Shown here: piece by piece, positions 30,727-31,699 of the stretch
How the letters are laid out: each line of letters begins with the position of its first letter
Numbering within the stretch: position 1 is the first letter of the stretch
Assembly: GCA_951406725.2 (NCBI GenBank)
Contig: OX597837.1
Coordinates: 21,142,001 to 21,206,000, forward strand
Source: Octopus vulgaris
Taxonomy: Eukaryota
Direction of reading: 5' to 3'
Length of the DNA stretch: 64,000 nt
Translations under genes and position numbers: made by a program
The notes under the pieces: model-generated
Seen by the model: only the letters and a program-made list of their open reading frames with translations
The model's database searches: none
Told to the model about the DNA's origin: nothing

Positions 30727-31035
30727 TTTAAGAAACACACAAAAACCGTTAGATTCACTTCAACATTTAAATTTAATTTGTCAAAATATTTTCGTCGCTT
30801 TGAGACTGCGACCTGTTCACTGACAAAACTTTGTGCTCAAAGTTTTGTCAGTGAACAGGTCGCGGCCTCAAAGCGACGAAAATATTTTGACAAATTAAAT
30901 TTAAATGTTGAAGTGAATCTAACGGTTTTTGTGTGTTTCTTAAATGGCTTATAAACACCATCCACGCTGCAATTGTTTTCATTCCAGCACACGATCTCAG
31001 TTCAGGTCACTTGCTATGCGAGTACATCTCCGTAA
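30727..31035. mobile_element. Fold-back (107-bp arms, 4-nt loop) plus tail; Penelope-like/retrozyme-like non-autonomous insertion
   Basis: 30727-30833 is the near-perfect inverse of 30838-30944; 13-bp duplication TAAAATACTTTTA at 30718-30730 and 31033-31045. Confidence 0.75.
30844..30894 (+). ncRNA. Minimal type I hammerhead-ribozyme-like motif, G3:C8 variant (mirror copy on - strand at 30777-30827)
   Basis: Stem I TTTGTCA/TGACAAA, core GTGAACA, stem II GTCGC/GCGAC, GAAA, palindromic ATAT, then UU. Confidence 0.6.
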
Positions 31036-31699
31036 AATACTTTTATTTCTGCATAACATATTGTGTTTTCTTTTCCTTTTATGCAAACTGTCAAATTTAG
31101 CCCAAACACTCTGTATGTATGTTTAAATATGTGTGTGAATGTATCTTTGAAATGATACCATGTGAAGACCAGTAGAATAAAATTCCTTACTTAAGCTCCA
31201 ATCGATCACTCCCACACTTTCTTCTAATATATAAATGGTAATATAGCTCCTCTACAGTAAGAAACATGTTCTTCTCTGGCCCCTGCTCTCTTATTTTTAC
31301 TCTATGTCTCCTCGCATAAAGTTGCTTCCTTGGGATTTATAATCTTGTGAAATGCATGGCAGCCTCACCAGTGTGGCACAAGAAAAGCACCCACTACATG
31401 CTGTAATGTAGTTGACATTAAGGACATCCAGTCAAGGTAACTGAGGTATGATGCAGTACTTGGAACCAGTATGAGGTGTGATGCATTACTTGCAGGTCCT
31501 GTAAAACCATCCAACCCATGCCAGCATGGAACATGGATGTTAAATGATGATGAAAAACAGATAACGGTTGGCAATAGGGAGAGTATTCAGCTGTAATATA
31601 ATACCTCAGTAAGTTTAAGTTTCATCCAACCCATACCAGCATGGGAAAAAAGGAAGTCATAAAAATGATGATGATATGTTTTACTCTATGTTGGCTTAT

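Follow-up and report, generated by a model that had tools for sequence, protein, structure and literature searches.

Three insertions of one short repeat

The window analysed here, a 64,000-nt stretch of the Octopus vulgaris contig OX597837.1, holds three insertions (A, B and C) which share one 3′ end in a self-comparison of the window; A and B bear a hammerhead-like motif, and C is motif-less. Their features, in window coordinates, are as follows.

8282–8389, minus strand: insertion C, 5′-truncated, ORF-start part only, with a degenerate AT-rich TSD
10901–11100, no single strand: insertion B, 11-bp TSDs (10901–10911 and 11090–11100), element at 10912–11091
30336–31135, plus strand: host of insertion A, a decayed transposon with a transposase C-terminal remnant (uninterrupted paralogue at ~521–914)
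30718–30730, plus strand: AT-rich 13-bp TSD on the left of insertion A, overlapping the inverted arm with the final 4 bases (microhomology)
30727–30833, minus strand: inverted duplicate of the 5′ part of insertion A, with the second motif (30827–30777, G3 at 30820)
30838–31035, plus strand: forward unit of insertion A, pLTR/5′ UTR containing the hammerhead, followed by the 30 initial codons of a Penelope-like element (PLE); its 3′ end is common to all insertions
30844–30894, plus strand: minimal type I hammerhead (from descriptor, fold and comparison with relatives), predicted to cut 3′ of U17 (30887)
30944–31035, plus strand: start of the PLE RT-endonuclease frame, ATG at 30944, 30 codons, open in all three insertions
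30979–31035, plus strand: 57 nt between the recurrent 3′ ends 30978 and 31035, likely a PLE “tail” between two reverse-transcription start sites (from ends in sequencing runs and analogy with PMC11167929)
31033–31045, plus strand: right TSD of insertion A (self-comparison)

Insertion A (30731–31035) consists of an inverted duplicate of ~105 bp followed by the forward unit, the two arms (30727–30833 and 30838–30944) differing at 2 positions. Insertion B joins an ORF-start part on the minus strand (10912–11013) to a hammerhead part on the plus strand (motif 11023–11073, G3 at 11030), with ~21 nt lost at the inversion. A preliminary description of this DNA, made from the letters alone, had reported TSDs of 11–13 bp and inverted segments, both of which we recover (13 bp at A, 11 bp at B, inversions in both), and had overlooked insertion C. 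Its three motif copies (11023–11073 and 30844–30894 on the plus strand, 30777–30827 on the minus strand) all exist, their coordinates, 7-bp stem I and core having been found again, but because two of them are the arms of one inverted duplication only two motif-bearing insertions are independent. Where the inverted pieces end internally they share 4 nt (A) or 2 nt (B) with the TSD, an overlap that we would expect of a second priming event. Twin priming has been described in work on L1. Overall, the 5′-truncated and inverted copies, the tail and the AT-rich targets seen here are traits of PLEs.

The ~105-bp inverted repeat of insertion A, sitting in a Tc1/mariner remnant, might instead recall a MITE or DNA transposon whose TIRs fold hammerhead-like by chance. 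We give this reading, which the preliminary description had itself raised as a counter-possibility, virtually no credence: the inverted part lies inside the insertion and is not the same from copy to copy, the TSDs are of unequal length, the window copies show neither terminal inverted repeats nor a fixed TSD, and the idea is contradicted by protein homology, the shared end encoding the N-terminus of a PLE RT. That the mariner was the target is shown by the empty site, a single 13-mer at 814–826 within the second host-transposon copy (~521–914). We take this host to be of Tc1/mariner type, judging from its motif. Elsewhere the window contains a tandem array with a 156-nt repeat unit (29080–30264), an RT fragment of another LINE (20294–20971, Pfam RVT_1), a LINE C-terminal remnant (33582–33820) and exons that by eye resemble a membrane transporter gene (33826–36706).

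A hammerhead motif with a swapped core pair

The forward motif of insertion A is built of a 7-bp stem I (30844–30850/30888–30894), the core GUGAACA (G3 at 30851, then U4, G5, A6 and A7, C8 at 30856 and A9 at 30857), an extra G (30858) between A9 and G10.1 that is absent from the preliminary description, a 5-bp stem II (30859–30863/30873–30877), G12 (30878), A13 and A14, a helix III formed by the 6-nt palindrome AAUAUU (30881–30886, A15.1 to U16.1) and finally U17 (30887). Renumbering the motif in this way leaves the predicted cut, 3′ of 30887, where it had been placed before. In the 11023–11073 motif stem II has 6 bp and is closed by a G·U, and pair 10.1–11.1 is G–C in insertion A and G·U in insertion B. 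The core is identical in 3/3 motifs and never reads CUGANGA; the 3:8 Watson-Crick pair is present, and U4, G5, A6, A9, G12, A13, A14 and A15.1–U16.1 are all intact, with stems I and II in type I order around the core by both fold and descriptor.

With the 3:8 pair left free, a minimal type I descriptor matched these three sites only in the window, while 100 dinucleotide shuffles of the window gave on average 0.02 (loose) or 0.0 (strict) matches, so that the motif is not a product of chance. The minimum-energy fold of each copy consists of the two stems (z −2.5 to −3.0), with G3 paired to U17. A transcript through insertion A is predicted to form one long hairpin (−181 kcal/mol) in which the ~105-bp duplex would lock both motifs, and self-cutting at this locus is therefore unlikely.

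The front end of a Penelope-like reading frame

The motif lies 93 nt before the ATG of the PLE frame, which itself lies 57 nt past the cut site, and all three insertions end ~92 nt into this frame. When the 31 residues of copy C were compared with 1.84 billion proteins, one match was returned, an Octopus bimaculoides record, which led on to protein records of O. sinensis and O. vulgaris. Residues 1–31 of the record P0004 are 87% identical to copy C and 90% to copy B, and its residues 1–30 are 80% identical to copy A; P0004 in turn overlaps P0105 at 79% identity, and P0105 is 45% identical over 464 aa to the full-length P0058 (1,051 aa). Followed through their overlaps, the Octopus records extend to DKSG and SMDxxxLYPS, i.e., to a PLE-type RT downstream of the ORF start, and those of the window family itself break off ahead of YxDD and the endonuclease. 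Full-length relatives show DKSG, YVDD, a CX4CXXC linker plus, at the C-terminus, a GIY-YIG region of YIGETSRS type, their RT and GIY-YIG motifs having been identified by eye from a comparison with the supplementary PLE alignments of Craig et al. (2021). Pfam returned no GIY-YIG match in 8 relatives, whose RT and endonuclease stayed below the cut-off, and did not recognise the N-terminal domain of the PLE frame; a protein atlas yielded only a 0.75 lead. An upstream ATG frame running through the ribozyme was considered and set aside, as it stops after 22 codons and in-frame stops precede the ORF.

Judged on sequence, the three window copies are best described as a coding PLE's pLTR followed by its 30 initial codons and not as a separate SINE or retrozyme. 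The Penelope link proposed in the preliminary description is borne out, both by this 80–90% identity to Octopus PLE records and by the relatives described below, which carry the motif at the same place. The ORF-bearing Octopus records are linked by overlaps to proteins with full RT and GIY-YIG.

Two of the records are probably annotation chimeras: P0004 is a gene model fusing the PLE to methyltransferase exons, and P0128 fuses a PLE to exons of a leucine-rich-repeat protein. O. vulgaris also has a second PLE family of the same clade (P0113, P0110, P0114, P0117, P0121, P0122), ~50–55% identical to the window family and present as near-identical copies.

Hammerhead-like motifs in related PLE loci

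Protein-alignment scans gave 18 matches in metagenomes, of which 6 were confirmed as PLE loci; prokaryote genome contigs added one confirmed locus (from 15 matches) and viral contigs none (from 1 match). Viral contigs likewise yielded nothing when scanned with patterns and proteins specific to the element. Motifs were counted over the four of these seven loci that have a UTR after the ORF stop (L001, L002, L004 and L007; L003, L005 and L006 are without UTR), and in 4/4 the stop is followed, on the sense strand, by a hammerhead-like motif that shares the extra G and has a 6-nt palindrome. That of L004, found with the preset descriptor, has C3:G8. The others were spotted by eye before the descriptor was loosened: L001 has C3:G8 and a U15.1:A16.1 swap (4973), L002 has U3:A8 and C at position 9, and L007 has C3:G8, A at position 5 and a U15.1:A16.1 swap (about 2541). 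In its loosened form the descriptor recovers L001, L002 and L004 and no other site in the loci, fails on L007 and gives three weak extra matches in the window. L001 and L004 are partial tandems (pLTR-ORF-pLTR type), with the motif 102 nt (L001) and ~210 nt (L004) before the ATG. A MAFFT alignment of the motifs misplaced L002.

These motifs of the relatives are, at the level of sequence comparison, the main evidence for a genuine hammerhead homology of the window motif and for the compensatory nature of its swap, and we hold it very likely that the motif is homologous to PLE hammerheads. In a quick tree (midpoint root, the Octopus row a long half-filled branch, no reference PLE families) the Octopus protein groups with L001 and L002, L004 and L007 falling in the other main group; given this grouping, C3:G8 was probably ancestral and G3:C8 derived within the clade. 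A CX2-5CXXC linker, one of the marks of a named PLE clade (Neptune or Nematis), is present in the relatives. The core departs from consensus outside 3:8 in two of the four relatives (L002 and L007), which indicates that decay happens. The clade is unusually rich in hammerhead core variants. As to the loci themselves, L007 (1–2683) is a PLE contig in a Desulfobulbaceae metagenome-assembled genome, presumably by eukaryotic contamination, and L001 contains at ~388–2418 an array of at least 74 copies of a 21-nt unit inside the 5′ part of its PLE ORF.

An Rfam scan with E up to 5 for the window and 10 for 371 nt at the locus returned no hammerhead family. As had been expected in the preliminary description, CUGANGA descriptors miss this core. 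Rfam called no hammerhead in the relatives either, and since it missed even L004 with its canonical core the test is insensitive. The A/U-only palindrome of the window motif gives a predicted duplex of −0.2 kcal/mol, vs. −4.8 for L004 and −5.1 for L001, and a modelled dimer (−27.0) gains little over two monomers (−26.4). With so little gained by dimerising and a possible G3·U17 pair, we would rate catalytic activity of the motif as rather likely and no higher.

Ends and variation among copies in sequencing runs

The stretch holding the repeat was found in runs of six organisms and, as a small share, in one metagenome run, 17 of 24 rows holding at least half of its words. Contigs were mapped from four of the 24 runs (19,842, 7,992, 6,469 and 1,470 contigs; the low-share runs X20–X24 were left out). 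As many as 287 contigs of one run leave the stretch at 30840–30843, so the copies must be many, depth not being equal to copy number. About 15 letters upstream of 30843 are shared in 4/4 runs before a mixed AT-rich flank begins, and mixed flank also follows 31035 (4/4 runs) and 30978 (2/4 runs), which gives two recurrent 3′ ends. Among the 15 of 54 joints listed, 7 link 30840–30843 to the opposite strand at varying places, as in A and B. The loose-end letters before the 5′ block partly agree in two runs, and in one of them resemble a 3′ splice site; an intron ending at helix I is described for Drosophila Penelope (PMC4209133), and some copies may extend further 5′.

A unit of ~200 nt with a type I hammerhead and long TSDs also fits a non-LTR retrozyme replicating via circular monomers cut from tandem arrays, the more so as retrozymes have been proposed to derive from pLTRs (bioRxiv 10.64898/2026.07.22.740005), and metazoan non-LTR retrozymes are likewise short, with a type I hammerhead and a PLE connection. 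The unit in the window, unlike retrozymes, holds the start of a PLE ORF; self-comparison found no tandem copies of it within the window, none of the 15 of 54 joints is head-to-tail, the letters past 31035 are mixed flank and not the start of another element, and no loose end falls at the predicted cut site among the rows listed. We regard the retrozyme-like circles envisaged in the preliminary description as very improbable.

Its term “non-autonomous element” likewise gives way to the pLTR and ORF start of a coding PLE. A ~210-nt non-autonomous PLE derivative with the same ribozyme and its own pLTR promoter, mobilised in trans, would account for ends that look fixed across the four runs (upstream of 30843; 31035 and 30978), for subfamily-like variants at 10–40% (30890 and others) which show several source lineages, and for the lack of any RT-coding remnant of the element in the window. 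It is harder to square with an uninterrupted frame start in each of the three insertions, 80–90% identical to ORF-bearing Octopus records, and, by analogy with a lizard PLE (PMC11167929), copies ending at the reverse-transcription start would lack the binding region. We consider such a derivative somewhat unlikely.

Variants reaching at least 3% in any run were found at 0/18 core positions vs. 25/125 positions downstream (Fisher p-value 0.025, composition-aware p-value 0.026), at 5/24 stem positions and at 3/9 loop II positions, with three positions differing in the window copy alone dropped and the copies being related rather than independent. The core is thus better conserved than the part downstream, as the preliminary description had asked of a functional motif, although the 3′ half of the core taken alone (0/10 variable) is not significant (p 0.12–0.23) and variants in the 5′ half are harder to detect, so close to the left edge of the mapped stretch. 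Positions 3 and 8 have no listed variant in the four runs. Four of the five stem variants keep a G·U pair, including A30890G at 10–39%, and the fifth (G30875A, 3–6%) breaks its pair; C11.1 varies at 3–7% while its CpG partner G12 is without listed variant, and one stem CpG is without any variant.

Depth steps at the cut site in an RNA-like run were considered as a sign of cleavage and rejected, as these are contigs, which cannot show RNA ends, and the X14 profile is the same. In run X16 (RNA-like, run type unconfirmed) A>G reaches 3.5, 7.4 and 7.6% at 30903, 30922 and 30942, vs. at most 0.5% in the three others, a hint of A-to-I editing of sense transcripts in a comparison of runs from different individuals.

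Comparison with known hammerheads and Penelope-like elements

Minimal hammerheads of PLEs, their solo copies and their opposite-strand motif pairs have been described by Cervera and De la Pena (2014; PMC4209133), with an extra base after position 9 and a palindromic helix III as further traits. The window motif resembles them in its type I order, extra base 9/10.1, G10.1–C11.1 pair, palindromic helix III and NUH site, as well as in its pLTR location, many solo copies and opposite-strand pairs. It differs in its G3:C8 core, the 56 representatives of that study comprising 53 with C3:G8, 2 with U3:A8, 1 with U3·G8 and none with G3:C8, and also in its longer stem I (7 bp) and its extra base (G vs. 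consensus H); none of these 56 is from a cephalopod. The window feature appears to behave as known PLE hammerheads do and to fail the literal core consensus alone.

In the lizard PLE Poseidon of Anolis carolinensis (PAc; Frangieh et al., 2024, PMC11167929), reverse transcription starts 111–118 nt into the ORF, two start points define the tail, and targets are AT-rich. As reported there, the PAc hammerhead does not cut unless the protein is present, the main substrate is uncut RNA, and the RNA needs ~172 nt of ORF, well past the reverse-transcription start; C3G or G8C kills cleavage, and the double C3G/G8C partly restores it. The window family is like PAc in having its hammerhead close to where the ORF begins, genomic 3′ ends that fall within the first part of the ORF (two of them, set apart by a tail), AT-rich targets and, apparently, uncut RNA as template, and the engineered C3G/G8C of PAc is its natural state. 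It is unlike PAc in the place of the ATG (57 nt past the cut site vs. inside the ribozyme), in its ends at ~35 and ~92 nt into the ORF, and in its CX4CXXC linker and DKSG and YGLRKDHK motifs, which point to a clade other than that of PAc.

Two further Octopus PLEs, Hydra-1_Obim and Naiad_Obim (Craig et al., 2021, PMC8557442), encode different proteins, and the Hydra-1_oBim core is the canonical CUGAAGA. Membership of the window family in either was rejected on these protein differences, and in the supplement text searched neither the N-terminal peptide nor the core string occurs. Open full-text searches for cephalopod hammerheads and for a natural G3:C8 core return only engineered mutants and Craig et al. 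(2021), and the main text of the 2026 repeat annotation of Octopus vulgaris makes no mention of ribozymes or hammerheads (PMC13282606).

Covariation of the 3:8 tertiary pair is known in nature from the U3:A8 hammerheads (Perreault et al., 2011, PMC3088659; Schistosoma Cercyon PLEs; also PMC4209133). Unlike U3:A8, which two transitions reach via a U·G wobble, G3:C8 would take two transversions via G·G or C·C, as can be read from the sequences. A pairwise mutant scan found the G:C swap to be the sole rescuing double mutant in that region (PMC9901934). Elsewhere G3–C8 is said to be less active with C17, in a remark given as “data not shown” (PMC3884650), a remark that the U rather than C at 17 in the window motif fits.

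Could the motif then be a relic, its swap drifted to fixation, which no longer cuts or is kept as a structure for protein binding, promoter or splicing? The lizard PLE lends some weight to this, since cleavage is dispensable for its insertion in vitro and no RNA-seq reads are reported to end at the site (PMC11167929), and so do Naiads, which thrive without canonical hammerheads (PMC8557442); the weak A/U palindrome, the U17 triplet and the possible G3·U17 pair point the same way, and the window copies appear to derive from uncut RNA. However, two transversions restoring the exact pair known to rescue activity (PMC9901934) would hardly be expected in the absence of selection, the other core positions are intact, with no listed variant across subfamilies and four runs, and stem changes are of wobble type. 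We judge a relic distinctly unlikely.

The reading that we prefer, and hold to be probable, is that the repeat is the pLTR and 30-codon front end of a coding PLE, with its own type I hammerhead changed from C3:G8 to G3:C8 and likely cutting 3′ of U17 slowly, as a dimer or helped by protein. In such a scheme the PLE protein would nick AT-rich DNA and prime reverse transcription internally on its own RNA, at ~35 or 92 nt from the ORF start. With an mRNA beginning in the pLTR, this internal priming would copy only the first ~210 nt and leave masses of short “solo” copies with fixed ends, which would explain short two-ended copies without a separate non-autonomous element; a second priming event would give the inverted forms. 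Most copies would be made from uncut RNA, the simplest reading being an uncut template whose 5′ end lies just ahead of the ribozyme and on which copying begins at either of two points separated by 57 nt. The swap, for its part, would have been fixed in the source lineage because 3:8 pairing, and hence catalysis, was under selection.

The G3:C8 pattern outside the family

No natural G3:C8 core came up in the open full texts searched, their scope leaving aside subscription papers, repeat databases and the survey of Lunse et al. (2017), reportedly a large one of PLE-linked hammerhead variants. In viral contigs the G3:C8 pattern gave 18 matches vs. 37 for the mismatch control G3·G8 and an estimated ~1,900 for the canonical core; those that fold number 1/18 for G3:C8 (L021), 1 (weak) of 37 for the control and 114 of the 126 canonical matches examined. 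L021 (61–95, minus strand, of a viral contig of 169,713 bp) is an independent candidate for a full type I hammerhead with G3:C8, with a stem I of 5 bp, stem II of 4 bp, stem III of 10 bp and A17; its loop II might also pair with the 5′ tail in a pseudoknot of 5 bp. The candidate has no Rfam match, no relatives were found for it, and its minimum-energy fold is without stem I. The G3:C8 variant seems to be rare and may have arisen more than once.

Implications for hammerheads in Penelope-like elements

The family reveals neither new chemistry nor a new kind of element. It offers a natural covariant of a tertiary pair that the searched literature otherwise holds only as an engineered mutant, in an abundant ribozyme-like repeat which both CUGANGA descriptors and Rfam overlook. 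As a natural wild type it also carries a prediction, namely that single revertants should be dead and the double revertant faster.

The role of hammerheads in PLEs is debated, as cleavage is weak and dispensable for insertion in vitro, and the ribozymes have been suggested to be mere riders. A fixed swap from C3:G8 to G3:C8, in a clade that also shows U3:A8, argues for selection on the catalytic fold. It is tempting to speculate, and we put this forward as a tentative proposal that may well not hold in full, that this is the first natural G3:C8 hammerhead family: an active ribozyme that got across a fitness valley of two steps and of which thousands of short copies, primed internally on uncut PLE mRNA, were then scattered over several octopus genomes. 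If so, pattern-based ribozyme surveys would be missing whole families, and the occurrence of C:G, U:A and G:C within one PLE clade would be direct evolutionary evidence of selection for catalysis.
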